Positions 1,470 to 54,341 of a stretch of DNA of 64,000 bases are shown here, in pieces (position 1 is the stretch's first letter; each line of letters opens with the position of its first letter). The DNA comes from an uncultured candidatus Porisulfidus sp. GTDB taxonomy: Bacteria; Pseudomonadota; Gammaproteobacteria; Poriferisulfidales; Poriferisulfidaceae. Under the pieces are notes generated by a model. That model had not been told where the DNA came from and did not search any database. It saw only the letters and a program-made list of their open reading frames with translations. The stretch is taken from NCBI GenBank assembly GCA_963668445.1, contig OY764335.1:918346-982345 (forward strand). The letters are read 5' to 3'. The position numbers and the translations under genes are program-made.

Positions 1470-1868
1470 ATGCATAGGTTGCCGGTGCGGGTGTATTATG
1501 AGGATACCGATGCCGAGGGTGTGCTTTATCATGCGGCTACGATCCGCTACCTGGACCGTGGCCGCACTGAGTGGCTGCGGGCCGCGGGACACCTCTTGCG
1601 GCATATGGCAGAGGCGGAACGACGGGTGTTCGCCGTGCATTCGCTGACAGTCCGCTATCTGGGCATGGGCCGCTTGGATGACGAACTGACGGTGCATACG
1701 CGCCTGTCCGCTCGCGGACGCGCGTCGCTCGATTTTGAACAAAGCCTATGGAGGGAGCAGGAATGCTTGGCGCAGGCGGAGATTCGGGTGGCATGCCTGA
1801 ATGTGGAGACGGGGCGTCCGGCGGCAGTGCCGGAGCTAAGGCCTGACGAGGAACCGGACGATGCATGA
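1470..1868 (+). CDS. ybgC: Tol-Pal-associated acyl-CoA thioesterase YbgC (hotdog fold)
   Basis: 132 aa; N-terminus VYYEDTDAEGVLYHA typical of 4HBT thioesterases; sits immediately upstream of tolQ. Confidence 0.8.
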   Translation: MHRLPVRVYYEDTDAEGVLYHAATIRYLDRGRTEWLRAAGHLLRHMAEAERRVFAVHSLTVRYLGMGRLDDELTVHTRLSARGRASLDFEQSLWREQECLAQAEIRVACLNVETGRPAAVPELRPDEEPDDA

Positions 1869-2538
1869 ATTCACGCTTTTGGGCATGCTGACGCAGGCTT
1901 CGACAGTTGTGCAGGCTGTCATGCTGCTGCTGCTGCTTGCCTCGATCGCGTCGTGGGCCATCATCCTCAACAAGTCGCGCGTCCTGAACGTCCATCAGAA
2001 GGATGCGCGCAAGTTCGAAGATCGATTCTGGCAAGGCGTCGATCTGTCGCAGCTGTATGGGCAGCTGCGCCAGCGGAAATCGCATTCGGCGCTGGAGGAA
2101 GTGTTTTGCTTGGGCTTTCGCGAATACGTGCAACTGACCCGGAATCGGCAGGTTTCGCTGGATAGCATCAACCATACGGCGGTGCGCAGCATGCGCGTCG
2201 CGCTGTCGCGCAATGTCGAACATCTGGAAACGCATTTGCCGACGCTGGCGACCATCGGCTCCACCAGCCCCTACATCGGCTTGTTCGGCACGGTGTGGGG
2301 CATCATCAACGCATTCCATTCGCTGGACCCGACGCAGGGTGCGTCAATGCTGATTTCCATTGCACCCGGAATCTCGGAGGCTTTGGTGGCGACCGCCTTG
2401 GGCTTGTTCGCAGCCATCCCCGCGGTCATTGCCTATAATCGCTTCACCGACCGGGTGGACAAGTTGCAAGTGCAGTACAGCAACTTCATTGAAGAGTTCA
2501 CCGCGCTGCTGCAGCGCGAATCGCTGCAGAGCGACTAG
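1861..2538 (+). CDS. tolQ: Tol-Pal system protein TolQ (MotA/ExbB family)
   Basis: 225 aa; GLFGTVWGIINAF and IAPGISEALVATALGLFAAIPAVIAYN signatures. Confidence 0.9.
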   Translation: MHEFTLLGMLTQASTVVQAVMLLLLLASIASWAIILNKSRVLNVHQKDARKFEDRFWQGVDLSQLYGQLRQRKSHSALEEVFCLGFREYVQLTRNRQVSLDSINHTAVRSMRVALSRNVEHLETHLPTLATIGSTSPYIGLFGTVWGIINAFHSLDPTQGASMLISIAPGISEALVATALGLFAAIPAVIAYNRFTDRVDKLQVQYSNFIEEFTALLQRESLQSD

Positions 2539-2541
2539 GCC

Positions 2542-2976
2542 ATGGCTCCGCTGCAGACCACCCGCCGCCACATGGCGCAGATCAACATCGTGCCGTACAT
2601 CGATGTCATGCTGGTGCTGCTGCTTATCTTCATGATTGCAACTCCCTTGATGCAGCAAGGCATGCTGATCGATTTGCCGAAAGCGCCGTCGGAGCCTGTC
2701 GAGCCGGAACCGTACCACGAGCCGCTGGTGCTGGAAATCAATCGCGACGGCGAATTGCGGCTGGTGCGCGAAGGGACGTTCTCCAATGCGGTTGCCGAAT
2801 CGGACTTGCCGGGCCTGGTTGAGGCCATGATGCGCGAGGGCGGCGATGAGACGCTGTATGTGCGTGCGGACGCAGGGCTGCCGTACGGCACCGTGGTGGC
2901 GGCCGTCGCCCGGCTCAGCCAAGCCGGCGTGACGGCTTTGAGCCTGCTGACGCAGCCGCCGGCGGAATCCCCATGA
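2542..2976 (+). CDS. tolR: Tol-Pal system protein TolR (ExbD family)
   Basis: 144 aa; TM segment INIVPYIDVMLVLLLIFM with the conserved Asp. Confidence 0.9.
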   Translation: MAPLQTTRRHMAQINIVPYIDVMLVLLLIFMIATPLMQQGMLIDLPKAPSEPVEPEPYHEPLVLEINRDGELRLVREGTFSNAVAESDLPGLVEAMMREGGDETLYVRADAGLPYGTVVAAVARLSQAGVTALSLLTQPPAESP

Positions 2977-3809
2977 TCGTTTCGCCGCGTTCCGTCGGCA
3001 GGGCGCAGCACCGCTTTGGCACTTGGGCCTGGGTCGGCGCCGTGGCCGTGCATGTCGGCATTTTCGCCGCGCTGCAGTTCGGCAGCACTCCGCCAGCCCG
3101 CTCCAGCATCTCGTTGCCGCCAGCGACCGAAGCGATCCGGGTCCAAGCCATGGATGCGGAAGTCCTGCGCAAGCGGCGTGCGGCGCATCAGCGGGCGCTA
3201 CGCGAATTGGAGCAAGCCCGGCAACGTGAAGCGCAAGCCAAAGAAGCCGAACGGCTGCGGCAGCAGGCATTGCGCCAAGCGGCCGAGCGCAAACGCCGCG
3301 AAGCCAAGCAGCAAGCGAAACGGAAACGTGCCGAAGAGGAGCAGCGCCGGCGCGAGGCCGCGCAGCGCGAAGCGGAGAAACTCCGGGAGGCTAAGGCTGC
3401 GGCGATGCGGGCCGAAGCCGAACGGCAGGCCAAAGTGCTGAAGGAGCAGCTGGCACGGGCAGAGCGGGTCGCCGGCCAGAGGCGAGCGGAGCAAATGCGC
3501 AAGCAGCGCCGGGAGGCGGAGAGGCGCAGCCGTCTGCTCGGCGAGTGGACCGTGGCCATTCGAGCGCGCATTGAAAATCTTTGGCGGCCGCCGCCAACGG
3601 CGGCAAGCCGGCCCTGCGAAGCCGTTGTCGAACAGAGCAAACACGGCGAGGTGCTATCGGTCAAAGTGCGCAACTGCACCGCCTCCCAAGCTTGGCAGGA
3701 TTCCCTGCGCAACGCCGTGCTCAAGGCAAGCCCGTTGCCGGCCGCGCCGCACAAGAATCTGTTCGAGCGGCGGCTGGTCATTACGTTCCATCCCAAGGAG
3801 CGCGACTGA
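2973..3809 (+). CDS. tolA: Tol-Pal system protein TolA
   Basis: N-terminal TM segment, long A/E/K/R-rich helical region, C-terminal globular domain; position between tolR and tolB. Confidence 0.8.
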   Translation: MIVSPRSVGRAQHRFGTWAWVGAVAVHVGIFAALQFGSTPPARSSISLPPATEAIRVQAMDAEVLRKRRAAHQRALRELEQARQREAQAKEAERLRQQALRQAAERKRREAKQQAKRKRAEEEQRRREAAQREAEKLREAKAAAMRAEAERQAKVLKEQLARAERVAGQRRAEQMRKQRREAERRSRLLGEWTVAIRARIENLWRPPPTAASRPCEAVVEQSKHGEVLSVKVRNCTASQAWQDSLRNAVLKASPLPAAPHKNLFERRLVITFHPKERD

Positions 3810-5113
3810 TGGGGGTTCGATTGCGACTGTTGGCGCTGCTGGCTCTGGCATGGCCGCCGCTCGGCCAGGCCGAACTGCTTCTGGATGTGCGCGAGGGCGT
3901 GGAAGGCGGCATTCTGATTGCGGTCGCGCCGGTCGGCGCATCCAGTCGGGAACTGGCGGATGTGGTCCGATGGGATCTGTCGTTCAGCCCGGCCTTCGAA
4001 GTGCTGCAGCCCGGCAAAATGCCGCAAGCCGTCCTGTCCGGTCATACACCGAATTGGGCAGATTGGCGCCAGCGCCCGGTCGAGTACCTGCTGACGGTCG
4101 AGAGCCAAGAACTGGGGAACGATCGGGTCGGGCTGAAGTTCCATCTGCAGGATGTGCTGCGCGGACGCACGATCTTGGCGCGCCGGCTGGCAGTCGCGCA
4201 GCGGTTCCATCGGCGTCTCGCGCATCAGACGGCCGATGCCGTGCATGAGCACCTTACCGGGGTTCCGGGCGCATTCGATACGCGCATGGCATACATCAGC
4301 CAAAGCGGGAGCGGCCGCAAGGCCCGCTACCGCCTGTATGTCTCCGACATTGACGGGCATCGGCCGGTAGCATTGCTCGAGTCGCCGCACCCGTTGCTGT
4401 CGCCGGACTGGTCGCCGGACGGGAAGCAACTGGCCTACGTGTCGTTCGAACTCGGGCACGCGCAAGTGTACGTGCACCACTTGGCGAAAGGCGCCCGCCG
4501 GCCCTTGCCTTATGACGGAGCCCACTCCAGTGCGCCGGACTGGTCGCCGGACGGGCGGCAGCTGGCGATGGCGATGACCATTGAAGGGGATACGGAAATC
4601 TTCATCTACACGCTGGCGACAAACACGCTGCGCCGCCTCACGCGCAGCCGGGGCATCGATACGGAGCCGGTCTGGACGGCGGACGGCAAGGCGCTGGTCT
4701 TTACGTCGGGACGCTCCGGCCAGCCACGGCTCTACCGGCAGGCCGTGCATGGCGCGGCGGCATCCGTGCTCCCGATCGCGGGCCGCTACAGCGCATCTGC
4801 GGATGCCTCGCTTGACGGACGCTATCTGGCATTCGTGCAGTCCACCCCGCAGGGCGGCTTCGGCATTGCGCTGTACGAGACGGCAAGCGAGGTTGTGCAT
4901 CCGCTGTCGTCCGGCGGTCTGGACGAAGCGCCGTCGTTTGCGCCCAACGGGCTCGGCTTGCTGTATGCCAATACCATGCGCAGCAGGAAGCGGGGCGGGA
5001 AGGCCGGGAAGCAAGTGCTGACGCGAACCAGTCGTGATGGTACAATCCAACGGCAGTTGGACATCCCGCAGGCGAATGTACGGGAGCCTGCATGGTCCCC
5101 TTACCGCCACTGA
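3809..5113 (+). CDS. tolB: Tol-Pal system beta-propeller protein TolB
   Basis: ATG at 3809 overlaps the tolA stop (TGATG); signal peptide MGVRLRLLALLALAWPPLGQA; repeated DWSPDG propeller motifs. The long ORF-track start at 3581 was rejected. Confidence 0.9.
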   Translation: MGVRLRLLALLALAWPPLGQAELLLDVREGVEGGILIAVAPVGASSRELADVVRWDLSFSPAFEVLQPGKMPQAVLSGHTPNWADWRQRPVEYLLTVESQELGNDRVGLKFHLQDVLRGRTILARRLAVAQRFHRRLAHQTADAVHEHLTGVPGAFDTRMAYISQSGSGRKARYRLYVSDIDGHRPVALLESPHPLLSPDWSPDGKQLAYVSFELGHAQVYVHHLAKGARRPLPYDGAHSSAPDWSPDGRQLAMAMTIEGDTEIFIYTLATNTLRRLTRSRGIDTEPVWTADGKALVFTSGRSGQPRLYRQAVHGAAASVLPIAGRYSASADASLDGRYLAFVQSTPQGGFGIALYETASEVVHPLSSGGLDEAPSFAPNGLGLLYANTMRSRKRGGKAGKQVLTRTSRDGTIQRQLDIPQANVREPAWSPYRH

Positions 5114-5124
5114 TGGTTTTGATT

Positions 5125-5715
5125 ATGGAATTGCCACTCTCGAGATATGTGCTGCTATTGACTCTGCCGCTACTTGGCGCATGCAGCAGCGAAAAAGACG
5201 AACCGCCGCTTGACGCACTGGATCCGCCGGCGGCCTTGCTGGAGGAGGAACAGCCGCAGCAGCCTCAGGACGGCGTCAAAACAACGCGCTTGGATGACGA
5301 TGGCAATATCCTTTCCGACGAAATAGTACACGACGAAGATAGCGGCGAATTCGCGGCGGCGGACGACATGGAATCGCTGCCGGCGCAAGGCACCACCGTG
5401 TACTTCGGCTACGACAGCACCGATATCGACTCCCAATACATGGGCATCATCCAGAAAGTGGCCGACCGTCTGCACAGCAATTCGTCCGCGACGGTGCGTT
5501 TGGAGGGCCATACGGACGAACGCGGCTCCCGAACATACAATTTGGCGCTTGGCGAGCGACGGGCGCAAAGCGTGCTAGATTTGCTGCTGGAGAAGAATGT
5601 GCTGCCCGAACAAGTGGACTGGGTCAGCTATGGCGAAGAGATTCCGGCGGTGACCGGGCAGGGCGAAGAGGTCTGGAGGAAGAATCGCCGGGTCGAAATG
5701 ATTCTGGACGAATGA
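5125..5715 (+). CDS. pal: Peptidoglycan-associated lipoprotein Pal (OmpA-like)
   Basis: Signal peptide with lipobox LLGAC; OmpA-like motifs VRLEGHTDERGSRTYNLALGERRA; start chosen at the ATG just before the signal peptide. Confidence 0.9.
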   Translation: MELPLSRYVLLLTLPLLGACSSEKDEPPLDALDPPAALLEEEQPQQPQDGVKTTRLDDDGNILSDEIVHDEDSGEFAAADDMESLPAQGTTVYFGYDSTDIDSQYMGIIQKVADRLHSNSSATVRLEGHTDERGSRTYNLALGERRAQSVLDLLLEKNVLPEQVDWVSYGEEIPAVTGQGEEVWRKNRRVEMILDE

Positions 5716-6497
5716 TGCGCCCGTGCAGGCCGCATCGGATCGGACGCATTCTGGCGGCGGCGTGCGGGCTTGCGCTCGCGGCAAACGCAGGAGCGGAAAC
5801 CGTCCCGCCGGCATCCGGCCCGGAGCAGTTGGATGAGGTCCGCGCCGAGTTGGAACGCTTGGAAGCGTCCGTGCAAGCGTTGCGGCGCGCATTGGAAGCC
5901 TACGCGCAAAATCAGGCAGAATTCGATGCGCCGCCGGTCTCGGCCGAGCGTACGGATGCGCCGCCGCCAGAAGCCGACCTTGCGGTTCAGTCCGGCGCAG
6001 CCGAATCGGATGCCGAGCAGATGCTGGCGCTTGAAGAACCGGCGACCCAAGAACAGTCTGCCGAGCCGCCGCCGGCAGAGGGGGACGCCCTCCGGTTCGT
6101 GGTGCTTGATCCCCCCTTGGAAATGCTGCGCCAGGGCCGCGAAGCGTTTCACGACCGCGAATTCTATGCGGCTGAGAAGAAGTTCCGTGAGTTTTTGGAC
6201 CGCTACCCCAAACATGTTGAGGCGCTGTCGGTTCGCCATTGGCTTGGCGAGACCTTGTATGAACAGGGTGCTTACCAAGCCGCCATTCAGGAATTTGGCG
6301 CGGTGCTGGAGCATGGCAGCGGTCCTCGCCGTCTGGTCGCTCGTCTCAAAACCGGCTATGCGTGGTACGAATTGGGCGAATACGAGAAGGCCCAGGCCGC
6401 CTTGATGCAAGTGCAGGCCGAAGACCCGAACGGCAGTCTGGGCCGGCTTGCGCAGTTGCGTCTGGAGCGTCTGGAACGCCGAACCGGCTCCGAATAG
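5712..6497 (+). CDS. cpoB: Tol-Pal system protein CpoB/YbgF (TPR, coiled coil)
   Basis: Signal peptide, coiled-coil N-domain, TPR-like C-terminal repeats; conserved position after pal. Confidence 0.8.
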   Translation: MMRPCRPHRIGRILAAACGLALAANAGAETVPPASGPEQLDEVRAELERLEASVQALRRALEAYAQNQAEFDAPPVSAERTDAPPPEADLAVQSGAAESDAEQMLALEEPATQEQSAEPPPAEGDALRFVVLDPPLEMLRQGREAFHDREFYAAEKKFREFLDRYPKHVEALSVRHWLGETLYEQGAYQAAIQEFGAVLEHGSGPRRLVARLKTGYAWYELGEYEKAQAALMQVQAEDPNGSLGRLAQLRLERLERRTGSE

Positions 6498-7894: not shown

Positions 7895-8983
7895 ATGCCT
7901 CTGGATAGGGAACAGATTGAAAACGCACTCAAGGATGTCCAGGACCCTGCGGCCGGCGTCGATTTGATTGCGGCCCGAGCGCTCGGCGATATCGCCGTCG
8001 ACGGCAATGCGGCAAGCATCTCCATTCGTCTGGGCTATCCGGCCAAGAGCATTTGCGAGGAACTGGCGCAGACAGTGAAAGGGCGCTTGGCACAGCTCGA
8101 TGGGCAGGCGAGTTTCGAAGTGGACGTGGGTTGGGATATCCAGTCGCATTCCGTGCAGAAGAATCTCAAGCCGATGGAGAACATCAAGAATGTGTTGGCG
8201 GTTGCGTCCGGCAAGGGCGGCGTCGGCAAATCGACGACCGCCATCAATCTGGCGCTGGCGCTGTCGGCGGAAGGCGCCACCGTCGGCATGCTGGATGCCG
8301 ACATCTACGGACCTAGCCAGCCGCGCATGTTGGGCATTTCGGGTCAACCGGATTCGCAGGACGGCAAAAGCCTGGAGCCGATGACGGCACACGGGTTGCA
8401 GGCCATGTCGATCGGCTTCCTGATCGACGAGGAAACGCCGATGATCTGGCGCGGTCCCATGGTGACGCAGGCATTGGAGCAGCTGCTCAACGATACGCGC
8501 TGGCGCGGCTTGGACTATCTGGTGGTGGATCTGCCGCCGGGCACCGGCGACGTGCAACTGACGCTGGCGCAGAAAATCCCGGTCAGCGGCGCTGTGATCG
8601 TCACGACCCCACAGGACATCGCCTTGCTGGATGCGCGCAAGGGGCTCAAGATGTTCCGCAAGGTGGAAGTGCCCGTGCTGGGCGTCGTGGAAAACATGAG
8701 CCTGCACATCTGCAGCGAATGCGGGCACGAAGAGCCGATTTTCGGTTCCGGCGGCGGCGAGAGTTTGGCGCAGGAGAACGATGTGGAGCTGCTGGGGCAG
8801 TTGCCGCTGGACCGGCGCATCCGCGAAGAAACCGACAGCGGCCAGCCGACTGTGGTCGCTGCGCCGGAAGACCGCATTAGCCAGATATACCGCGACATCG
8901 CCCGCCGTGCGGCCGCACGGCTCGCTCAGCAGGCCCGCGACTACAGCGCCAAGTTCCCGCGGATCGTCATCCAGAACGATTGA
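7895..8983 (+). CDS. apbC: Fe-S cluster carrier ATPase ApbC/Mrp
   Basis: N-terminal DUF59-like region, deviant Walker A ASGKGGVGKSTT, CxxC motif (CSECGHE). Confidence 0.9.
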   Translation: MPLDREQIENALKDVQDPAAGVDLIAARALGDIAVDGNAASISIRLGYPAKSICEELAQTVKGRLAQLDGQASFEVDVGWDIQSHSVQKNLKPMENIKNVLAVASGKGGVGKSTTAINLALALSAEGATVGMLDADIYGPSQPRMLGISGQPDSQDGKSLEPMTAHGLQAMSIGFLIDEETPMIWRGPMVTQALEQLLNDTRWRGLDYLVVDLPPGTGDVQLTLAQKIPVSGAVIVTTPQDIALLDARKGLKMFRKVEVPVLGVVENMSLHICSECGHEEPIFGSGGGESLAQENDVELLGQLPLDRRIREETDSGQPTVVAAPEDRISQIYRDIARRAAARLAQQARDYSAKFPRIVIQND

Positions 8984-9550
8984 ATGGGCGTCAAGTCGGA
9001 TCAGTGGATTCGGCGCATGGCCGAAGAGCAGCGCCTGATCGAACCGTTCGAGCCGCGCCAAATCAGCGAGTCGGAAGATCGGCGCGTCATCTCCTACGGC
9101 ACCTCCAGCTACGGCTACGACATCCGCTGCTCGACGCATTTCAAGATTTTCACGAACATCAATTCGGCCATCGTCGATCCGAAGCAGTTCGCGGAGGACA
9201 GCTTCATCGACTACGAAGGCGACGTGTGCATCATTCCGCCGAACTCGTTCGTGCTGGCCAGCACCGTCGAATACCTGCGCCTGCCGCGGTCCGTGCTGGC
9301 CGTCTGCCTCGGCAAATCCACCTACGCCCGTTGCGGCATCATCGTCAATGTCACGCCGCTGGAGCCGGAATGGGAAGGCCATGTGACGCTGGAGTTTTCC
9401 AATACGACACCGTTGCCCGCCAAGGTCTATGCGAACGAGGGCGTGGCGCAGTTGGTGTTCTTCGAGGCGGATCAATTGTGCGAGGTCTCGTATGCGGACC
9501 GCAAGGGGAAGTATCAGAAGCAGCAGGGCGTGACGTTGCCGCGCGCCTGA
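8984..9550 (+). CDS. dcd: dCTP deaminase
   Basis: 188 aa; strongly conserved Dcd sequence (e.g. [19 protein letters not shown]). Confidence 0.9.
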
Positions 9551-9576
9551 GGCAGAAAGGCGCGAGGAATACGGCG

Positions 9577-9828
9577 ATGTCCAAATTGCGCATCTTGCGC
9601 CGCATCGTGGCGCTGGTGGTCGGCGGCATCATCCTGCTGGTCGGCGTGGTCATGTTCTTTACGCCAGGACCTGCGATTCTAGTCATTCCGGCCGGGTTGG
9701 CGATTCTGGCGACCGAATTCGCATGGGCCCGAAAGGTGCTGGCGTACTTTCGCGAAAGGGTAGCCCACGCCACGCAGCGCAACGACGGCTGGTGGAGTCG
9801 CCTGGCCCGGAAGTTTTCCAGAAAATAG
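9577..9828 (+). CDS. Small two-TM membrane protein, PGPGW-like (FTPGPAILVIP motif)
   Basis: 84-aa internal ATG-started ORF with two hydrophobic helices and a TPGP motif; the longer ORF-track version (8980..9828) overlaps dcd and was rejected. Confidence 0.45.
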   Translation: MSKLRILRRIVALVVGGIILLVGVVMFFTPGPAILVIPAGLAILATEFAWARKVLAYFRERVAHATQRNDGWWSRLARKFSRK

Positions 9829-9954
9829 TGCGGATTGAAGGGCGGAGATGCAGTAATCCGGCTGCCGCCGTACGGCAAATTGTAGAATGGGTGCCTAGGT
9901 GCGCTTGCTTCGCGGCCCCCGACGACTTCCTGCCGAATCCGAAACACGACTTGA

Positions 9955-11259
<1,305 letters not shown>

Positions 11260-32039: not shown

Positions 32040-32311
32040 CGGCCTAGGCCGTGCCGTCGCCGGTCCTTCCTGCAGGCTGTGGCAGGCGGAAGGCAGAAGG
32101 AGGGGTGATGGATGGCCATAGAAATCTTTCCGGATTGGCGGCCTTATCTTGCCAAGACCCGTAGAGCGGGCCAGGGCAAAGGATATCCTGCCAGCCCGCC
32201 GCCCGATTGCCGCATGGGGAATTTTGTTAAAATGCGTCCTCTAATCTTAGCCGGTGCCGGAGACTTTCCGGGAACCTCTATTTTACAGTTTGAGAGCCAC
32301 ACGCCATATAC

Positions 32312-33253
32312 ATGCAACCGAGCACAGCGCAAACAGTCCAGAACCGGGTAGGCATGCTGATGTGGCAAGCCGCCTTGGTGCCGCTGCTTGCGGCGGTGCT
32401 GGTCGCCTTGCAATTCGAAATCATCGAGGAGGTTTATTGGGGGCCTTTGACGACAGAGATCGGCTGGGTGGTCAACGGCGTCATTATGGTCTTGTTTCTG
32501 GCTGCGCTGCTGCGCATGAGTGCGCTACTGCGCTTCTATTTTCGCGAGGACCGTGCCATCGATGCATTCGACGAGCAGTTGGATTTCGGGCTGGCTGGAG
32601 ATAAGGCCGAAAGCCTCGCCGGTACGCTTGTCATGCAGCGCTATCGGGCCTTGGAGCAGAGCCGGCTGGAATGGGAACAGCCCCATCAAACGGCTTTGGC
32701 AGGCATTTTGTGGAGTCAAGAGGCTGCACGCTTGGGCTTGATGCGTCTGATTCAGAACGTGCTGATCCTGCTCGGCGTCTTCGGCACGGTGGCTTCCCTG
32801 TCGCTCGCCCTGATCGGTGCTTCCGAACTTTTTTCCTCGCCGGAGAATGCCAGCGGCATCACATTGGTCGTGCGCGGCATGGCCACCGCCTTGTCGACAA
32901 CCATGGCCGCGATCGCCGCGTATCTTGTGCTGGCATTCGTCGCGTCTCGCGTGATCGCGGCGCAAGCGCATGTCTGCCGCCGGGTCGAGTCCCTGACCAT
33001 CAACCGCATGTTGCCGCTGCTTTCCAAAACATCCGGAAACCTGGCGCAGAACCTGCTGCATGCGCTCAGCGAATTGCAAAGCCTGCTGGCAGGCCTGCGC
33101 GATACGCATGACGCCTTGCAAAAGCAGGCGTTGAATTTGGGCGAATTCGAACGGGCGCGGCTCGAACATGAAGCCGCACTGCTGAAGCAGATGCGCCGCA
33201 TTAATCAAGCGCTGAGGGAAGGGTTCCGACTACAGAATACGGGGGCGCCATGA
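32312..33253 (+). CDS. MotA/TolQ/ExbB-family proton-channel protein with a C-terminal coiled-coil tail
   Basis: Helix LILLGVFGTVASLSLALIG matches the LLGxxGTV signature shared with tolQ in this same window; a second helix GMATALSTTMAAIAAYLVLAF; about 100-aa helical tail; start may instead be the internal Met at about 32354. Confidence 0.6.
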   Translation: MQPSTAQTVQNRVGMLMWQAALVPLLAAVLVALQFEIIEEVYWGPLTTEIGWVVNGVIMVLFLAALLRMSALLRFYFREDRAIDAFDEQLDFGLAGDKAESLAGTLVMQRYRALEQSRLEWEQPHQTALAGILWSQEAARLGLMRLIQNVLILLGVFGTVASLSLALIGASELFSSPENASGITLVVRGMATALSTTMAAIAAYLVLAFVASRVIAAQAHVCRRVESLTINRMLPLLSKTSGNLAQNLLHALSELQSLLAGLRDTHDALQKQALNLGEFERARLEHEAALLKQMRRINQALREGFRLQNTGAP

Positions 33254-34146
33254 ACATGGAGCAAGCGGCCCCGTTCGGGCAAGGCATCTTCCAAGCCCCC
33301 GGCGGCGAAGAAAGTTTTTGGCCTTCCTTTACGGACGTGATGATGGTGGTCGTCATCGTGTTCCTGCTGTCCAGCACGGCCGTCGTCTTGCACAATTGGG
33401 ATTTGGCCAACCAGGTCCGGGCGATGATCATGCTGGAACAGCAGGCCCGCACCGAAGCCGAAGATCTGACGGCGCAGCAAAAGCTCCTGCACGCGGAACT
33501 GGAGCACTTGCGCGAGCGCATGGCGCATGCGAGCGCAGCGTTGACGCACAAAAGCCAAACGCTGGCGGCCAGGGACGCGGAATTGAAAGAGGCCCAAAGC
33601 GGCCTTTTCGACCTTCGAGCTTCCACGCTGCTCGTGCAGAAGGAACGCGACCGCCTGCTGGAGGAGATGGAACTGGCCAAGGCTGCCAATGCCAAGCGGG
33701 AACAGCAACTGCTGGCCGCGCAGCAGCAATTGGTGCGGCTGGAGGAAGAAAAGGCAGGTTTCGAGAAGATGTTCGTGACGGTGGATGCGCAGCACCGCCA
33801 GACGCTGGAGGAGTTGGAAATGCTGCGGACCCAGCATGCGGAAATCGAAGAGAAGTACCGAGTGCTCATGAAGCCGGCACGCAGCGCCTTGGGCAAGGTT
33901 TCGGTCGCCGTGCGCTATACCCGGCGCGACGGGCAATTGACGACGGAACTTCGGATCCCGGATTCGGACAAATTCCTGTCCGTCGATTCGGAAACTTTGC
34001 ATCAGATGCTTGGCGACCTGAAAGAACAGCACTCCGGTCAGTTGTTCTTGCGCATCATTATCCCCACAGGGGCGAATCTCAGCTACGAAGAAGGCTGGCA
34101 GTTTTCGCTCGATCTGCTGCGCCGCTACGATTACTACTACCAATGA
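33250..34146 (+). CDS. MotB/TolR/ExbD-like plug/anchor protein with a long periplasmic coiled coil
   Basis: N-terminal FWPSFTDVMMVVVIVFLL (TM with conserved Asp, like FTDVM/ADLM of MotB/ExbD); about 150-aa coiled coil; C-terminal about 80 aa only weakly OmpA-like; 4-nt overlap with the upstream MotA-like gene. Confidence 0.55.
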   Translation: MNMEQAAPFGQGIFQAPGGEESFWPSFTDVMMVVVIVFLLSSTAVVLHNWDLANQVRAMIMLEQQARTEAEDLTAQQKLLHAELEHLRERMAHASAALTHKSQTLAARDAELKEAQSGLFDLRASTLLVQKERDRLLEEMELAKAANAKREQQLLAAQQQLVRLEEEKAGFEKMFVTVDAQHRQTLEELEMLRTQHAEIEEKYRVLMKPARSALGKVSVAVRYTRRDGQLTTELRIPDSDKFLSVDSETLHQMLGDLKEQHSGQLFLRIIIPTGANLSYEEGWQFSLDLLRRYDYYYQ

Positions 34147-34187
34147 TGCAGCGCATCGAGAACTGACGGATTCGGGGGAGAGTCATC

Positions 34188-35114
34188 ATGGCGGCATCCG
34201 TGGCGGTGGAAGGCTTGGTCAAGACCTACGGCGACCTGCGGGCAGTCGATGGTCTCAGCTTCGCGGTCGAGACCGGCGAAGTGCTCGGATTTCTGGGCCC
34301 GAACGGGGCCGGGAAGTCCACCACCATGAAAATGATTACGGGCTTCCTGCCGCCGACGGCAGGGCAGGCCTCGGTATGCGGCTACTCGGTCGCCGAACAG
34401 CCCTTGCAAGCCAAACGCTGCCTCGGCTATTTGCCGGAAGGCGCTCCCGCATACGGCGAGATGACGCCGTGGCAGTTCCTGAATTTCGTCGCCGACATCC
34501 GGCGTCCGCAGAATCGTTCGGAGCAGATGGACCGGGTGGTCGGCCAGCTGGCACTCGAACCGGTGCTGCATCGGCCAATCGACACCTTGTCGAAAGGCTA
34601 CCGCCGCCGCGTCGGGCTGGCGCAGGCCATGCTGCATGATCCGCAGGTGCTGATCATGGACGAGCCGACTGACGGGCTGGATCCGAACCAGAAGCAGCAA
34701 GTGCGCCAGTTCATCAGCGAGATGGCCCGCGACAAGACCATCATCATTTCCACGCATATTCTGGAGGAGGTGGAGGCCATCTGCACCCGGGCGATCATCA
34801 TCGCGAACGGCAAGGTGCTGGTCGACGAGACCCCGGACGCCTTGCGGGCACGCTCCCGCTACAGCAACGCGGTGACGATCCAAGGCGATGTGGCTCCGGA
34901 CGTGCGCAAGGGCTTGGCGGAACTGGACGGTGTGGCCGTCGCGGAACCGGAGCGCGAGCAGAGCCTCACGCTGATTCCCAAGTCCGGCTGCGTCATCGAA
35001 GAGCCGGTGCGCCGCCTCCTGCTGCGCCACGGCCTGCAAGACATCCGGCTGTTCATTCAGCCCGGCCGGCTGGACGACGTATTCCATGCGCTGACCCATC
35101 ATGCCCATGAATAA
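34188..35114 (+). CDS. ABC transporter ATP-binding protein (GldA-like, ABC-2 type)
   Basis: Walker A GPNGAGKST, signature LSKGYRRRV, Walker B LIMDEPT. Confidence 0.85.
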   Translation: MAASVAVEGLVKTYGDLRAVDGLSFAVETGEVLGFLGPNGAGKSTTMKMITGFLPPTAGQASVCGYSVAEQPLQAKRCLGYLPEGAPAYGEMTPWQFLNFVADIRRPQNRSEQMDRVVGQLALEPVLHRPIDTLSKGYRRRVGLAQAMLHDPQVLIMDEPTDGLDPNQKQQVRQFISEMARDKTIIISTHILEEVEAICTRAIIIANGKVLVDETPDALRARSRYSNAVTIQGDVAPDVRKGLAELDGVAVAEPEREQSLTLIPKSGCVIEEPVRRLLLRHGLQDIRLFIQPGRLDDVFHALTHHAHE

Positions 35115-35841
35115 CCTCCACGCCATTGTTCGGCGCGAGCTGATCAGCTATTTCCAGACGCCGATCGCCTACGTGTTCATCATGATCTTCCTGCTGCTGT
35201 CGGGGGCGATGAGCTTTTATTTGGGGAACTTCTACGAACGCGAGCAGGCGGATTTGGATGCCTTCTTTTCGTTCCATCCTTGGCTGTACCTGTTTCTGGT
35301 GCCAGCGATCAGCATGCGGCTGTGGGCGGAAGAACGCAAGACGGGCAGCATCGAACTTCTGACGACGTTGCCGCTGACGGTCCTGGAAGCCGTGCTCGGC
35401 AAGTTCCTTGCGGCCTGGGCCTTCACCGGCATCGCCTTGCTGCTAACCTTCCCGATCTGGCTTACCGTCAATTACCTCGGCGACCCTGACAATGGCATCA
35501 TCGTGGCCGCGTATCTGGGCAGTTTCCTCATGGCCGGAGGCTTCATGGCGATCGGCGCCTGCCTGTCCGCCGCCACCCGAAATCAGGTAATCGCTTTCAT
35601 TCTCAGCGTCGTCACTTGCTTTCTTTTCCTGCTGAGCGGGTTTCCCATCGTGCTGGACTTTTTCCAGCTGTGGCTGCCGCAGCCGATCGTGGATGCGATT
35701 GCATCGCTGAGCTTTCTGACGCACTTCTCATCGATCAATAAGGGCGTCATCGATGTTCGGGACTTGCTGTATTTCGTCATTCTGATTTCGGTATGGCTGT
35801 ATGCCAATGTGATTGTGGTTCGGACTCGGAAAGCGGCATGA
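35101..35841 (+). CDS. ABC-2 type transporter permease (GldF-like)
   Basis: 246 aa, six predicted TM helices; overlaps the ATPase gene by 14 nt. Confidence 0.75.
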   Translation: MPMNNLHAIVRRELISYFQTPIAYVFIMIFLLLSGAMSFYLGNFYEREQADLDAFFSFHPWLYLFLVPAISMRLWAEERKTGSIELLTTLPLTVLEAVLGKFLAAWAFTGIALLLTFPIWLTVNYLGDPDNGIIVAAYLGSFLMAGGFMAIGACLSAATRNQVIAFILSVVTCFLFLLSGFPIVLDFFQLWLPQPIVDAIASLSFLTHFSSINKGVIDVRDLLYFVILISVWLYANVIVVRTRKAA

Positions 35842-37721
35842 AGATGCCCGATCAGCACATGTACGCCGCAGCGGGCCTGAGCCTGCTCGCGATCCTGTTC
35901 GTCTCCAGCATCATGTTCAGCAATCTGGTGCTAGACAATCTGCGCCTAGACCTTACGGAGCAAAAACTGTATACCGTCAACGAAGGCACCTTGAAGGTTC
36001 TGGGAGGCATTCAGCAGCCCATCAACTTGTACCTGTTCTTTTCCGATCAGGCCAGCTCCGACAACACCTATTTGCGCAACTACGCCCGCCGCGTGCGCGA
36101 ACTGCTGGAGGAGTATGCCTACTATGCGGACGGGCGGCTGACGCTGCAGGTGATCGACCCTGCTCCGTTCTCGGAAGAAGAGGACCGTGCGACGGAATTC
36201 AATCTGAGTGCCGTTCCGACGCAGCAGGGAAACAACCTCTACTTCGGCCTGGTTGGCACGAATGCTGTCGATGATGTTGAAATTATTGAATTTTTTCAGC
36301 CGGAGCGCGAAGCGTATCTGGAATACGACATCAGCCAGTTGATCTACGCGCTGACGCATCCGGCCAAACCGGTCGTCGGCGTCCTGACCGGACTTCAGAT
36401 GTTCGGCGGATTCGATCTCGGGGCGCAGCGCTCCACGCCCGAATGGGCAATTTTGGACCATGTCAAGCGCACGTTCGAAGTGCGCCAGATCGATCCGGCC
36501 GACGGCACGGTCGATCCGGACATCCAGACGCTGATGCTGGCGCATCCCAAGCGACTGTCGCCGAAAACGCTTTACGCGACCGACCAGTTCGTGATGCGCG
36601 GCGGGCGCATGCTGCTGCTGGTGGATCCGTACGCGGACAAGGATCCGATGTTCCAGCAGGCCAGCAACCCGCCCGAGTCCGGCGGCATTCAGGCATCCGA
36701 CAGCGTCGAACTGCTGGCGGCCTGGGGCTTGCGCATGGATACGGAGCAGATTGCGGCGGACCGCACTTTGGCGCTGCCGGTGCAAAGCCCCGGTCAAAGG
36801 CGCACGGTGCGTCATGCTTCGTTCCTCAACGTGCATGCGCAAGCCATCAATCGCAACAACCTGATTACCGCGCAGCTGTCCAGGGTCATGATGGGCTTTC
36901 CTGGACATCTTGAGCAGGCGGAAGGATTCGAAGGCGAATTCATCCCATTGCTGACCACGACCGAAGACTCCAAAACGATTCACAAGCAACACTACCGCTA
37001 CCTGCCGGATCCTTCAACCCTGATGCAAGGATTCGAGCCGGGCGGAACTCCGCTGACACTGGCCGCATGGGTGCGCGCCCGACCCCGAAGCCTCTTCCCG
37101 GATGGGCCGCCGGAAGGCGCGGAAGAACCGGCCGACGGCCACCGCGCCGCTGCCGAAGAAGCCGTGGATGCGATTGTGGTCGCCGACAGCGACATGCTGT
37201 CGGACACGCTGTGGGCTCAGGTGCAGAGCTTCTTCGGGCAGCGGGTCGTCCAGCCGTGGGCCAACAACGGGGATTTCATCGTCAATGCGCTGGAAAGCCT
37301 GGGGGGCAGCAGCGATCTGATCGGATTGCGCGGCCGGGCACGATTCTCACGGCCGTTCCATGTCGTTGACGGTCTGCGGCGGCAAGCGGAGGGTCGCCTG
37401 CATCTCAAGGAAGAGGAGTTGAAGACGCGTTTGCAAGAAGCGGAGCAGAAGATCGCGCAGCTGCAGCAGCTCAAGCAGGACGAGGACCAGAACCTGCTTA
37501 CCGAACAGCAGCGGGCGGAAATTATCTCCTATCAGCAGGAGCGGGCGCGGATCCGGCGGGAATTGCGTTCGGTCCGGCATGAATTGGATCGTGACATCCA
37601 GCGGCTGGGCTTCGCCTTGCGCTTGATTAACATCTGGCTGATGCCCATCCTTCTGACAGCCGCCGCCATCGGCTTGTGGATGTTCCAGCGCCGCCGCCGC
37701 GCCCAGCGAGTCGCTTCATGA
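35838..37721 (+). CDS. GldG-family ABC-transporter auxiliary protein
   Basis: N-terminal TM, large periplasmic domain, C-terminal coiled coil plus TM; ATGA overlap with the permease; characteristic GldG architecture. Confidence 0.7.
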   Translation: MKMPDQHMYAAAGLSLLAILFVSSIMFSNLVLDNLRLDLTEQKLYTVNEGTLKVLGGIQQPINLYLFFSDQASSDNTYLRNYARRVRELLEEYAYYADGRLTLQVIDPAPFSEEEDRATEFNLSAVPTQQGNNLYFGLVGTNAVDDVEIIEFFQPEREAYLEYDISQLIYALTHPAKPVVGVLTGLQMFGGFDLGAQRSTPEWAILDHVKRTFEVRQIDPADGTVDPDIQTLMLAHPKRLSPKTLYATDQFVMRGGRMLLLVDPYADKDPMFQQASNPPESGGIQASDSVELLAAWGLRMDTEQIAADRTLALPVQSPGQRRTVRHASFLNVHAQAINRNNLITAQLSRVMMGFPGHLEQAEGFEGEFIPLLTTTEDSKTIHKQHYRYLPDPSTLMQGFEPGGTPLTLAAWVRARPRSLFPDGPPEGAEEPADGHRAAAEEAVDAIVVADSDMLSDTLWAQVQSFFGQRVVQPWANNGDFIVNALESLGGSSDLIGLRGRARFSRPFHVVDGLRRQAEGRLHLKEEELKTRLQEAEQKIAQLQQLKQDEDQNLLTEQQRAEIISYQQERARIRRELRSVRHELDRDIQRLGFALRLINIWLMPILLTAAAIGLWMFQRRRRAQRVAS

Positions 37722-38734
37722 ACGCCCGCGAATTCAAAATCCTCGCCGCCCTGACGGGCACCATGCTGGTGCTGACCATCATGGCCTACAGCGTCTTCCA
37801 TCGCACGGCCGACCATGAGTACGCCGGGGAGTTATGGCTGGAGGCGCTTGACGTCAATACGGTGACGCGCATCGAAGTTCACGGTCCGGAAGAAGCCGAG
37901 CAGGTGTCTCTGGAGCGGCGCCCGGAAGGTTGGGGCGTCGTGCAGCGCCGGCACTACCCGGCGCAAGTCGGCATGATCCGCCGTTTGCTTCTGGACTTAT
38001 CGGAAGCGAAATTGTTCGAGCGCAAGACCGACAATCCGGAGCAGCACGCGCAACTGGGCCTAGGGCGCATTGACGAGCCCGGTGCTGTAGGGCAGCAGGT
38101 CGCGCTGCATTTTGAAGGCGGTGGCCTGACGGTGCGCATCGGCTCCAGGCCGAGCGGGCGCAATTCGACTTACGTGCGCACTGCCGGCGACGATCAGGCG
38201 TGGCTGGTGGACCGCACATTCACGATTCCTGCGGAGCCGCGCCGTTGGCTGGAGCCGACGCTGCTGGACATCGGCATGGAGCAGATCGAGCGTATCCGCA
38301 TTGAACATCCGGATGGCGAGGTCATTGAAGGGCAACGGGCGACGGACGAAGGCGGAGTGCGGTTTGATGTGCTGCGCGTGCCGGCCGGGCGGAGCCTCAA
38401 GAACGAGTTCATCTTGAGCCGCGCCGCCGGTTCTATCGCGAGCCTGTCGCTGGAGGATGTGATGCCCGTGGATCAGGCGCGCGAATATGTGCAGGATGCG
38501 TCGCGCATCACGTATGCCATCCAGCGTGGCTACGCACTGGAAGCGCAATTGTTTGTGCGGGACATCGAGCGGTATGCGGTGTTCTCGATTCGCGTACAGG
38601 AAGATGCCGCCGAAGAGGCTCGCGCGGAAGCGGAGCAGTTGGCAGGGCATGTGCGGGACTGGGCCTTCCGCATCCCCTCGTTCGCCTACGACAGCATGGT
38701 GCTGCGCTGGTCCGATATTCTGAACGAGGAGTAG
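37718..38734 (+). CDS. DUF4340-domain protein (partner of GldG-type ABC systems)
   Basis: N-terminal TM plus about 310-aa periplasmic region; ATGA overlap with the GldG-like gene. Confidence 0.6.
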   Translation: MNAREFKILAALTGTMLVLTIMAYSVFHRTADHEYAGELWLEALDVNTVTRIEVHGPEEAEQVSLERRPEGWGVVQRRHYPAQVGMIRRLLLDLSEAKLFERKTDNPEQHAQLGLGRIDEPGAVGQQVALHFEGGGLTVRIGSRPSGRNSTYVRTAGDDQAWLVDRTFTIPAEPRRWLEPTLLDIGMEQIERIRIEHPDGEVIEGQRATDEGGVRFDVLRVPAGRSLKNEFILSRAAGSIASLSLEDVMPVDQAREYVQDASRITYAIQRGYALEAQLFVRDIERYAVFSIRVQEDAAEEARAEAEQLAGHVRDWAFRIPSFAYDSMVLRWSDILNEE

Positions 38735-52930: not shown

Positions 52931-53281
52931 GTGACGGACGATCTTCTGGATAGCATGGTCCGGGCCATCGTGGATGCGGTGGATCCTGAACAGGTGATTC
53001 TGCTCGGTTCGCGTGCGCGCGGTGATGCGCGCAAAAACTCAGATGTGGATTTGATCGTTATTGAAGCCGAACCGTTCGAATCTAGCCATAGCCGACATGA
53101 CGAGATGGTTCGGTTAGGTCGAATGTTGGGCGGTTTTCAAATTCCAAATGATATTCTCGTGTTCAGCAGCGACGAAGTGGAATACTGGCGCGACTCTATC
53201 AACCATGTGCTGGCCCGTGCATTGCGAGAAGGGAAACTGCTTTATGAGCGATTAAGCACGCTCGCGAAATGCTCGCTGTAG
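52931..53281 (+). CDS. MNT-type minimal nucleotidyltransferase (antitoxin-like), copy 1, N-terminally altered
   Basis: GSRARGDARKNSDVDL polymerase-beta-like NTase motif; relative to copy 2 the ancestral ATG (52910) is followed by an in-frame TAA at 52928 and a GTG restart at 52931. Confidence 0.55.
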   Translation: MTDDLLDSMVRAIVDAVDPEQVILLGSRARGDARKNSDVDLIVIEAEPFESSHSRHDEMVRLGRMLGGFQIPNDILVFSSDEVEYWRDSINHVLARALREGKLLYERLSTLAKCSL

Positions 53282-53680
53282 CCGAGCGGGACTTTGATAC
53301 TCTGCGCATACTGGCAGATGTTCCTGTGGCCGACGAGGTGTTCGGCTTGCGCAACAGGCAGCCGAAAAGCTTTTTTTAAGGCTTGGATTGCCTGATTGGG
53401 CGAAGCCTATCCAATTACCCACAACCTCAATATACTTTTGGAAGAACTTCGAAAATGCAATGCCGAAGTCGATCAATTTAGCAACTTGAGCAGTCTGAAT
53501 CCCTACGCCGTCAAATTCCGCTACGCGTATGATGCTTCCACAGCAGCACTAAACCGAATCGAGATTATTCAACGTGTGGAAGCGTTGCTTAAGGAAGTGC
53601 AAAGGAAGTGCAGCGGCAAATCAGCAAATACGACGGCTAATGTCGAGAACTGCAAAAGCATGTATAGAAATTCAGGCTGA
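53244..53680 (+). pseudogene. HEPN-domain (toxin-like) partner of MNT copy 1, disrupted by frameshifts and a nonsense codon
   Basis: Starts MSD then TAA; homology to copy 2 (KHARE..AERD...ILADVPVADE...QQAAEKLF) continues in shifted frames; only the C-terminal 94 codons (53396..53680) remain as an intact ORF. Confidence 0.5.
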
Positions 53681-53773
53681 CTTTCTATGTTTTGACCGGC
53701 CCGTAACTCCGCCGATGCTGGGCGAATCGACCGGAGCGTAGTAGGGGGTCAGATCTTTCGAATCGCTAAAATG

Positions 53774-54007
53774 CTAGATCTTTGCTCCGCAACTCTGAAG
53801 TTTTTCCAAAAGAAGGTCAAGATCGTGAGTCGTCGGGTAGTTGCTCCCCAGTAGGGCGAGCCAAGCTTTGAAGAGCTTTTCAACTGCCTGTTGTCCATGG
53901 AAGCCGATTGTTTCATCGGCCACAGGAGTATCCATCAGAACGCGCAGGGCTGTGAGGTCACGCTCGGCTAATACGAGCAATTCGCGAGCGTGCTTAAGGT
54001 CGCTCAT
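53774..54007 (-). CDS. HEPN-domain protein, copy 2, possibly C-terminally truncated (77 aa)
   Basis: MSDLKHARELLVLAERDLTALRVLMDTPVADETIGFHGQQAVEKLFKAWLALLGSNYPTTHDLDLLLEKLQSCGAKI; ends at a TAG where copy 1 continues (AEVDQFSN...). Confidence 0.5.
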   Translation of the reverse strand: MSDLKHARELLVLAERDLTALRVLMDTPVADETIGFHGQQAVEKLFKAWLALLGSNYPTTHDLDLLLEKLQSCGAKI

Positions 54008-54341
54008 AAAGCAATCTTCCTTCTCGCAGGGCACGGGCCAGCACATGGTTAATGGAATCGCGCCAATACTCCACTTCATCGCGGCTGAACACGAGAACGT
54101 CTTTCGGAACCCGAAAACCGGTCAGTGCCCGACCCAACCGGACCATTTCGTCGTGCCGGTTGCGACCAGCTTCGAACGGTTCGGCTTCGATGACGATCAG
54201 ATCCACATCGGAATCTCTGCGTGCATCGCCGCGTGCGTGCGAGCCGAACAGAATCACCTGTTCAGGGTCCACCGCATCCACGATGACCCGGACCATGCTA
54301 TCCAGCAGATCATCCGTTACTTCCGCCATTTCCCATGCCAT
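53994..54341 (-). CDS. MNT-type minimal nucleotidyltransferase, copy 2 (intact)
   Basis: 115 aa; GSHARGDARRDSDVDL motif; overlaps HEPN copy 2 by 14 nt (typical toxin-antitoxin-like coupling). Confidence 0.7.
   Translation of the reverse strand: MAWEMAEVTDDLLDSMVRVIVDAVDPEQVILFGSHARGDARRDSDVDLIVIEAEPFEAGRNRHDEMVRLGRALTGFRVPKDVLVFSRDEVEYWRDSINHVLARALREGRLLYERP

Follow-up and report, generated by a model that had tools for sequence, protein, structure and literature searches.

The genome of an uncultured sponge symbiont, 'Candidatus Porisulfidus' sp. (assembly GCA_963668445.1, contig OY764335.1), carries a pair of genes resembling the stator of an ion-driven motor directly upstream of a GldA/GldF/GldG-type ABC transporter and a DUF4340 gene, and the arrangement raises the question of whether the two sets of genes form a single machine. 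An ABC machine of the GldG type powered by a proton-motive-force (PMF) motor would, if real, be an envelope system with two energy sources and as such of a new kind. A preliminary description of the locus had proposed that the stator energises the GldG complex or reaches towards it, and had held that no link between a MotAB-like stator and an ABC system had been described. The latter statement overlooks SiiA-SiiB of the Salmonella SPI-4 type I secretion system, a MotAB/ExbBD-like proton channel that is encoded with, and assists, an ABC-based secretion apparatus (bioRxiv 10.1101/641415).

The whole stretch analysed, here called the window, comprises 64,000 nucleotides (positions 918,346 to 982,345 of the contig). 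The reading favoured, to which a probability of about 0.7 is attached, is that the locus consists of two autonomous envelope modules, adjacent only in the 'Candidatus Porisulfidus' lineage, and that the first of these, genes A and B, is a divergent motor of the TolQR/ExbBD type.

Organisation of the locus

An ORF check of the window bore out the tight packing first described: six co-directional open reading frames on the + strand occupy positions 32312-38734, overlapping by 4 to 14 nt within the two sub-blocks, which are 41 bp apart (Table 1). For two genes the start adopted is not that of the longest ORF. The GldG-like start at 35838 forms an ATGA overlap with the permease stop codon and aligns with homologues, and the DUF4340 start at 37718 also lies in an ATGA overlap and yields the 338 aa of database protein P0139. 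The gene at 1861 that had been taken for a genuine tolQ is indeed one, being a member of a complete tolQ-tolR-tolA-tolB-pal-cpoB cluster (1861-6497) elsewhere in the window.

Table 1. Features of the A/B and ABC modules in the window
Feature	Position	Strand	Basis
Gene A, MotA/ExbB/TolQ-superfamily membrane protein (predicted), 313 aa	32312..33253	+	Pfam, hhalign, AF2, Foldseek, hydropathy, invariant residues
Gene B, TolR/ExbD/MotB-type partner (predicted), 298 aa	33250..34146	+	ATGA overlap with A
Spacer between A/B module and ABC module, 41 bp	34147..34187	+	Terminator, promoter and RBS inspection
ABC transporter ATPase, GldA-like	34188..35114	+	Pfam ABC_tran E 5e-28; NCBIfam GldA 289.9 bits
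ABC-2 type permease, GldF-like	35101..35841	+	Pfam ABC2_membrane_2/3; NCBIfam GldF 177.7 bits
GldG-like accessory protein (DUF7088 + ABC_transp_aux), 627 aa	35838..37721	+	Pfam PF09822, PF23357; NCBIfam GldG
DUF4340 protein, 338 aa	37718..38734	+	Pfam PF14238 E 3.1e-14; database protein P0139; hydropathy
Imperfect palindrome CCTTCCTGCAGGCTGTGGCAGGCGGAAGG, beside suhB start	32066..32094		Sequence match; comparison with relative

The spacer of the window contains a ribosome-binding-like stretch, GGGGGAGAG, and gave neither a terminator match nor a promoter match. Because spacers of 41-47 bp without a predicted terminator occur in four lineages (the window and loci L174, L001 and L093), the A/B pair and the ABC cassette may be co-transcribed in some members of Porisulfidus, and a lineage-specific recruitment of one module to the other is conceivable. 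In the main Porisulfidus clade the spacer is ~120 bp long, and one locus there, L003, has a 9/12 promoter-like match in it. The palindrome reported upstream of gene A is present and imperfect, a repeat finder giving only a different arm pair that is 75% complementary, but its suggested role as a regulatory site is unsupported. The sequence has not been conserved in L174, the closest relative, whose A protein is 80% identical, and it is therefore probably not a functional element.

A channel-type protein and its long-helix partner

Protein A has four hydrophobic segments (residues ~12-41, 46-77, 141-174 and 190-219 by hydropathy), to which the AF2 model (pLDDT 79) adds two helical elements, a cytoplasmic insert (~60 aa) and, at the C-terminus, a hairpin (~90 aa) that terminates in an invariant L-x-x-G-F-R-L. 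The motif ILLGVFGT..SL is present, and G155, F157, G158 and T159 are invariant in the alignment of homologues. Against the Pfam family MotA_ExbB (PF01618) the protein scores 20.7 bits (E 3.6e-4, residues 138-218), short of the gathering threshold of 22.9; a precomputed PF01618 match is on record for many of its relatives that are 30-55% identical. Alignment of the A family with the TolQ of the window by hhalign gave a probability of 79.7% (E 1.5e-5, 107 columns) and paired GVFGT of A with GLFGT of TolQ, and ALSTT with ALVAT. When the model was compared with the PDB by Foldseek, the top 34 matches were without exception chains of ExbB, TolQ or PomA, and ZorA and MotA came next, at modest values (probability ~1.0, TM-score normalised to target 0.45-0.64, E 6e-3 to 0.1). 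A sequence-profile search against PDB chains yielded coiled-coil noise only, so that the homology came from hhalign and fold comparison, and an exact-sequence database look-up returned no record of the protein A of the window. Profile and predicted fold place A in the MotA/ExbB/TolQ superfamily, in keeping with the kinship to the tolQ of the window that had been proposed.

Protein B begins with a disordered stretch (residues 1-24) and has a single hydrophobic segment (residues 22-52 by hydropathy). The motif FWPSFTDVMMVVVIVF is present, with W24, P25, S26, T28 and D29 invariant (D29 over 25 aligned homologues), and WPSFTD is found in 74/74 B ORFs, which substantiates the TolR/MotB-like membrane segment with a conserved Asp first noticed. 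In the AF2 model residues 27-206 make up one helix, with pLDDT >90 over most of its length, of which ~160 residues, up to residue 206, extend beyond the membrane. The C-terminal part (217-292) is modelled as an alpha/beta domain with a TolR-like fold; among globular structures it is matched best by the periplasmic domains of TolR, including the E. coli TolR structure 5by4, the entry title of which names the Tol-Pal stator protein. The structural assignments of both proteins rest on AF2 models, with Foldseek E values of 6e-3 and weaker. At the sequence level B falls below threshold for the ExbD/TolR family PF02472 (14.7 bits against a gathering score of 25.4, E 0.032, TM region only), its C-terminal domain alone has no significant Pfam or PDB sequence match, and the best PDB sequence-profile match of its TM region is a ZorB chain, 8vvn_B (E 8.6e-6), with 8vvi_A and 8qyd_F also matched. 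An OmpA-like peptidoglycan-binding domain was not found in B by Pfam or structural comparison. Across the family B ranges from 277 to 806 aa and has no short TM-to-domain linker of the ExbD/TolR kind; the truncation of B in L174 is only apparent, and reflects a scaffold gap (a run of N). The long coiled-coil extensions originally ascribed to both proteins are thus borne out for B and apply more loosely to A, with its C-terminal hairpin. By motif and modelled fold, B is a TolR/MotB-type partner with a conserved Asp and a TolR-fold C-terminal domain.

The likeness of the pair to TolQ-TolR and ExbB-ExbD lies in the channel helices, with G-x-F-G-T and A-L-S-T-T of A at the positions of the TolQ motifs given above, in the single TM segment of B, which like that of TolR has an Asp at its N-terminal end and is accompanied by the TolR periplasmic fold, and in the adjacency and translational coupling of the two genes. 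However, TolQ and ExbB have three hydrophobic segments whereas A has four, together with the C-terminal hairpin and its own invariant motif, and in B, unlike TolR, TM segment and head are separated by a helix of 160 to >600 residues. Moreover, A and B both lie below Pfam gathering thresholds and no TolA- or TonB-like gene is linked to them. The count of four TM segments is that of MotA, and the TM motif of B, W-x-S-F-x-D-x-M, is similar to that of MotB and ZorB. A/B and Zorya both have a motor with a long coiled coil, but in Zorya ZorA bears it as a cytoplasmic tail, whereas in the present pair B bears it and its location, judged from homologous topology, would be periplasmic.

The ABC cassette

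Pfam domains confirm the GldA/F/G-like ABC set and DUF4340 gene previously described, namely ABC_tran, the ABC-2 permease, ABC_transp_aux with DUF7088 (PF09822 E 2.9e-58, PF23357 E 4.3e-22) and DUF4340 in the four downstream genes. By hydropathy the GldG-like protein has a periplasmic region of ~554 aa between two TM segments, and the DUF4340 protein an N-terminal membrane anchor followed by a periplasmic domain of ~310 aa. The domain families and the gene order (ATPase, ABC-2 permease, ABC_transp_aux) are those of GldA-GldF-GldG in Bacteroidetes, but the scores against the NCBIfam equivalogs (TIGR03522, TIGR03518, TIGR03521) are far below their cut-offs (GldA 289.9 against 402.6 bits, GldF 177.7 against 288.5, GldG 79.8 against 389.85), the cassette has an additional DUF4340 gene, and it stands alone as a unit of four genes in non-gliding Proteobacteria. 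No functional study of the proteobacterial cassette was found in the literature searched for DUF4340, PF09822 and ABC_transp_aux. The four-gene cassette is widespread on its own.

Distribution of the two modules

Gene neighbourhoods were surveyed in both directions, over 10 kb per side of the best 80 loci of each scan; the reverse, metagenome scan was seeded with the GldG alignment, that of DUF4340 being too divergent to serve as a seed. At least 543 species-representative genomes of Gamma- and Zetaproteobacteria have A and B side by side and coupled in translation, with the B head domain in 371 representative clusters, and A is followed by B in 80/80 of the best species-representative loci. 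Complete genomes with A/B include Chromatiaceae CP037918.1, Leucothrix arctica and Sedimenticolaceae OY782758.1. Genes for GldG, DUF4340 and the permease lie within 10 kb of A/B at all 11 uncut loci of the Porisulfidus clade, as against 0/68 elsewhere. In the reverse direction no A-, B- or TolQ-like gene was found within 10 kb of the best 80 metagenome GldG cassettes, and no A/B-like gene within 10 kb of the nearest outgroup cassettes (0/2). The census shows that the case for a motor-GldG machine rests on a lineage-specific juxtaposition. Because the modules adjoin only in one sponge-symbiont lineage, a machine in which the motor powers the transporter is unsupported. Adjacency was the sole basis for proposing that the stator drives the GldG complex or extends towards it, and this adjacency does not reach beyond the Porisulfidus clade. 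The preliminary description had itself named a lack of synteny between the stator-like genes and GldG/DUF4340 in related genomes as grounds for refutation, and the census found such a lack.

Within that clade the junction between B and the ABC cassette has been kept while A diverged down to ~46% identity and DUF4340 to 42%, and has also outlasted one or more rearrangements upstream of it (suhB/secDF versus ICL/IDH). Downstream, the trxB-ftsK-lolA block is likewise conserved inside the clade, and retention of the junction is therefore not special. Among the A/B loci surveyed there is no universal third gene, neighbours being lineage-specific; those that recur are DUF455 (22 loci), CobW (13-14), mnmG (6-8) and small ORFs without assignment. 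The contexts are made up of core housekeeping genes, as in mnmE-A/B-mnmG, and not defence islands.

Interpretation

Under the preferred explanation of two autonomous modules, the first would have A as its channel ring and B as its axle, with Asp29 as the protonatable residue of what the sequence suggests is a proton-coupled motor; membership of the family points to a 5:2 A:B assembly. The helix of B would be a dimeric coiled coil ~24 nm long and, inserted between the TM segment and the TolR-fold domain, would hold the TolR-like head far from the inner membrane. The pair would be inherited vertically in the core genome of many sulfur-/iron-oxidising and marine Gamma- and Zetaproteobacteria, and its output partner would not be encoded alongside it. 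The second module would be a GldA/F/G-like ABC-2 exporter with DUF4340, which stands alone elsewhere. In Porisulfidus the two would have come together upstream of an ancestral trxB-ftsK-lolA block and then stayed with the whole neighbourhood. Joint working of A/B with the ABC cassette is unsupported, and the modules presumably function independently. Against this explanation stand the survival of the junction through deep divergence and upstream rearrangement within the clade, and the precedent of SiiAB for a MotAB-like channel that assists ABC-based secretion.

A bolder reading, conceivable but doubtful, is that A/B is a distinct and so far undescribed class of TolQR-like motor in which the TolR-like subunit would span the periplasm and transmit the force itself, combining axle, TolA-like long helix and head in one chain. 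It would serve some core envelope function in hundreds of sulfur-/iron-oxidising and marine Proteobacteria, and in Porisulfidus might also be coupled to the GldG/DUF4340 exporter.

It is rather unlikely that A/B instead powers a system of the Ton or Tol kind in which a gene at another locus supplies the third component (a TonB/TolA-like transducer or an outer-membrane target), with B acting only as a long-reach anchor to the peptidoglycan or outer membrane. The best fold matches, ExbB/TolQ for A and TolR for the head of B, would suit such a system, as would the lack of a consistent neighbour, which is expected were the partners unlinked. However, no candidate third component was found, the window already holds a complete Tol-Pal cluster, and the range of B lengths is hard to square with an anchor of fixed distance.

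Recruitment in Porisulfidus only, whereby the coiled coil of a TolQR-like motor reaches periplasmic GldG and DUF4340, and PMF assists or gates ATP-driven export by the GldF/GldG/DUF4340 exporter, must be considered improbable. The six co-directional genes with their short, terminator-free spacers in four lineages are in its favour, as is the presence of the junction in every sampled genome of the clade in spite of upstream rearrangement, and the large periplasmic domains of GldG and DUF4340 would be within reach of a helix of ~24 nm. SiiAB, likened here by description, is the closest precedent for the motor-plus-ABC idea, but it is encoded, along with its substrate, in a conserved sii operon, whereas the association with an ABC system here is restricted to a single clade and functionally unsupported. 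No association is seen beyond that clade in either direction, each module is clearly functional alone elsewhere, the entire neighbourhood is syntenic in the clade, which makes retention of the junction unexceptional, and the main clade has the longer spacer with its promoter-like match. Nor was a clade-specific change noted in the C-terminal domain of B, the invariant residues being common to non-linked relatives.

That A/B might be an anti-phage sensor of the Zorya kind, or else the stator of a flagellar or gliding apparatus, is very improbable, and these identities were rejected. In their favour are weak hits to ZorA2, ZorB1 and ZorB2 from PADLOC and NCBIfam (E 2e-4 to 2e-2; PADLOC gave only weak ZorA/ZorB matches and none for the neighbouring genes), a ZorB chain as best PDB sequence match of the B TM region and four TM segments in A as in MotA and ZorA. 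Against them, the head of B is TolR-like without an OmpA-like domain, ZorC, ZorD, ZorE and flagellar genes are absent from the vicinity, A at 313 aa has no long ZorA tail, the contexts are housekeeping ones and the Gld proteins score far under the Bacteroidetes equivalog cut-offs.

Significance

The more useful outcome of the analysis is a family of TolQR-like motors with sharp limits, in core-genome positions and with no linked partner. The A/B family, a TolQR-like pair in which the TolR-like subunit has a coiled coil of very variable length, appears to be undescribed in the surveys checked: such an architecture is unmentioned in two recent surveys of MotAB/ExbBD homologues and periplasmic force transducers, one of which explicitly expects further 5:2 motors (PMC12505986, PMC12204202). 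Finding what A/B drives would lengthen the short list of known outputs for this class of motor.

The locus and its surroundings

The six co-directional ORFs reported in the preliminary description are present as stated. They encode a MotA/ExbB/TolQ-like protein (A, 313 aa), its TolR/MotB-like partner (B, 298 aa, with Asp29 in the transmembrane helix) and, directly 3' of these, a cassette of ABC ATPase, ABC-2 permease, GldG-like and DUF4340 genes. The adopted starts of the last two genes each give an ATGA overlap with the stop of the gene before. The cassette scores far under the cut-offs of the NCBIfam equivalog models for Bacteroidetes GldA, GldF and GldG and is therefore termed Gld-like rather than Gld. 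The locus is flanked upstream by secD-secF and suhB and downstream by trxB and ftsK. A complete tolQ-tolR-tolA-tolB-pal-cpoB cluster, preceded by ruvA, ruvB and a ybgC-like gene, lies at 1861-6497 and A/B is therefore an additional pair in the window. The palindrome at 32066-32094, put forward earlier as a possible regulatory site, exists but is imperfect and is not kept in the closest relative. Elsewhere, GC content in the window is lowest (0.51) at 52931-54341, where small ORFs look like duplicated MNT/HEPN toxin-antitoxin pairs.

Coordinates of the A/B-cassette locus and of the ORFs in the low-GC stretch
Feature	Position	Strand	Remarks
A	32312-33253	+	ORF
B	33250-34146	+	ORF; ATGA overlap with A
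Spacer, B to ATPase			41 bp
ABC ATPase	34188-35114	+	Pfam ABC_tran, strong score
ABC-2 permease	35101-35841	+	Pfam ABC-2 permease, strong score
GldG-like gene	start 35838	+	start from homologue comparison; Pfam DUF7088 and ABC_transp_aux, strong scores
DUF4340 gene	start 37718	+	start from homologue comparison; Pfam DUF4340, strong score
Nucleotidyltransferase-like ORF, copy 1	52931-53281	+	small
HEPN-like ORF after copy 1	53396-53680	+	small
Nucleotidyltransferase-like ORF, inverted copy 2	53994-54341	-	small
HEPN-like ORF after copy 2	53774-54079	-	small

Conservation of the junction between A/B and the cassette

The preliminary description proposed that an A/B stator energises, or reaches toward, the GldG-type ABC complex, and named synteny in related genomes as the decisive test. 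When one genome per species was scanned, relatives of A turned up in at least 543 genomes, and in the best 80 loci, which were fetched, tblastn placed B after A in every case. All four cassette genes follow A-B in the 11 uncut loci of the Porisulfidus clade, the window's own lineage, whose members oxidise sulfur, live in association with sponges and have chromosomes of 1.6-2.0 Mb. Beyond that clade, none of 68 of these loci has the permease, the GldG or the DUF4340 gene near A-B; they cover Zetaproteobacteria, Sedimenticolaceae, Chromatiaceae, Arenicellales, Thioglobus, Halothiobacillaceae, Granulosicoccaceae, the Olavius Gamma-3 symbiont and others; a few show only weak (25-34%), unrelated ABC-ATPase matches. 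Independent context look-ups found the block kept by the database proteins P0004 (64% identity) and P0019 (52%), and A-B retained with the cassette absent in Leucothrix (P0068, P0066 and P0082; 30-34% identity).

The nearest DUF4340 proteins from outside Porisulfidus (Woeseiaceae, Steroidobacteraceae) lie in stand-alone ABC-permease-GldG-DUF4340 cassettes. A reverse census, in which metagenomes were scanned with a GldG alignment, yielded 80 loci (1.04 Mb; GldG 40-46% identical). Of these, 75 contain the permease, 65 the ATPase and 64 DUF4340, and none has a match to the A or B profile HMMs, TolQ or TolR. The proposed stator-ABC machine is thus unsupported beyond a single clade, and the synteny indicates that two autonomous modules have come to lie side by side in this lineage only.

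A functional recruitment of A/B to the cassette restricted to this lineage is the other reading to be weighed. No terminator was found in the 41-47 bp spacer of four lineages; the spacer of the main clade measures about 120 bp and contains a promoter-like match (9 of 12 positions). Co-transcription of A/B with the cassette is possible in the window's genome. The most divergent clade member (L093) has ICL/IDH upstream, yet keeps A-B-cassette-trxB-ftsK-lolA-rarA; the junction is thus conserved like the surrounding synteny and no more, and recruitment seems improbable.

Identity of A and B

The earlier identification of the parts was supported, and sharpened for B, a TolR-like protein into which a coiled coil is inserted. 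A scores 20.7 bits against Pfam MotA_ExbB, under the gathering score of 22.9; B matches Pfam ExbD only at E 0.032, over the transmembrane helix; ZorA and ZorB matches in PADLOC and NCBIfam are weak. Homologues (88 clusters for A, 50 for B) were aligned, and in A the helices I-L-x-G-V-F-G-T..S-L and M..A-L-x-T-T..A-I and the C-terminal motif L-x-x-G-F-R-L are invariant. Profile-profile comparison with the window's TolQ gave a probability of 80% (E 1.5e-5, 107 columns), pairing GLFGT of TolQ with GVFGT of A and ALVAT with ALSTT. Judged by hydropathy, A has four hydrophobic segments and TolQ three. The top 34 PDB matches of an AF2 model of A (pLDDT 79) were ExbB, TolQ and PomA chains; ZorA and MotA ranked below these 34.

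In B, F-W-P-S-x-T-D is invariant and the conserved C-terminal domain ends in Y-D-Y-Y. As modelled, B is a TolR/ExbD-type subunit in which a helix of about 160 residues is inserted between the Asp-bearing transmembrane segment and the C-terminal TolR-fold head. By homology of topology, with the N-terminus in the cytoplasm, the helix would be periplasmic and, if a dimeric coiled coil, roughly 24 nm long.

The A/B family

In the 74 loci whose ORFs are complete, A and B mostly overlap by 4 or 8 nt, WPSFTD is present in every B, and B ranges from 277 to 806 aa, the variation lying wholly in the helix. (The B of L174, the closest relative, is seemingly truncated in the gene call because Ns fill a scaffold join at ~9230-9245, and not by mutation.) A profile of the head gave 371 matches in 1.84 billion representative proteins, 343 at E <= 1e-10; among the 150 matches listed, it lies at or within ~30 residues of the C-terminus of proteins of 111-540 aa, with no other architecture.

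The neighbours of A-B are heterogeneous housekeeping genes. A divergent DUF455 gene is near the pair in 22 loci, and a CobW/G3E-family GTPase gene, often with a 4-nt overlap, lies directly 3' of B in 13 Sedimenticolaceae-/Chromatiaceae-type loci (among them L026, L027, L035, L039, L040, L056, L059, L074, L085-L087 and L089), where it could share a lineage-specific operon with the pair or reflect local synteny alone. Other neighbours include HAD, AhpC and cmoB-like methyltransferase genes, and in one lineage (L007 and L008) rmuC, at 8694-10004, runs 4 nt into the start of A. Six Arenicellales-/Thioglobus-type loci (L034, L045, L050, L071, L081 and L083; A at ~10001, B to ~13000) encode a B of 559-806 aa, with A-B between mnmE upstream and mnmG downstream and yidC adjoining, a region of origin-proximal core genes. 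A coiled coil of 500-650 residues, as in these long forms, would far exceed the width of the periplasm. The A-B positions are core genome, neither defence islands nor secretion loci, and no consistently linked third component was found among the neighbours in the fetched loci. One locus (L068, JAIVTC010000131.1) belongs to a MAG that bears the name 'Candidatus Bathyarchaeota archaeon' and is probably a mis-binned bacterial contig.

Possible mechanism and significance

A and B may form an A5B2 assembly working as a TolQR-like ion-driven motor, in which protonation and deprotonation of Asp29 of B, opposite the conserved Thr of the GVFGT and ALSTT helices of A, would drive relative rotation. The long coiled coil of the B dimer would place both TolR-fold heads at a great distance from the inner membrane. 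There the heads might be anchored to a partner in the envelope, or act on it, this partner being either peptidoglycan or an outer-membrane-associated protein. The conserved C-terminal hairpin of A, predicted to be cytoplasmic, could offer a second interaction surface.

The preliminary description knew of no link between a MotAB-like stator and this ABC/GldG system; the concept has a precedent, since the Salmonella SPI-4 pair SiiAB has been described as a MotAB-like channel that cooperates with type I (ABC-based) secretion (bioRxiv 10.1101/641415). A literature search found no functional study of a proteobacterial GldG/DUF4340 cassette. A 2025 survey sorts MotAB homologues into a flagellar group and 'generic' ion transporters; it describes compact heads on the B subunits and DUF appendages of several kinds, and contains no coiled-coil B subunit, the word 'coiled' occurring 0 times (PMC12505986). 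A study of force transducers of the TolA/TonB type, also from 2025, reported new vWA transducers and expected further 5:2 motors, and has nothing similar to the A/B pair (PMC12204202). The novelty resides in the A/B family, not in a stator-ABC machine.
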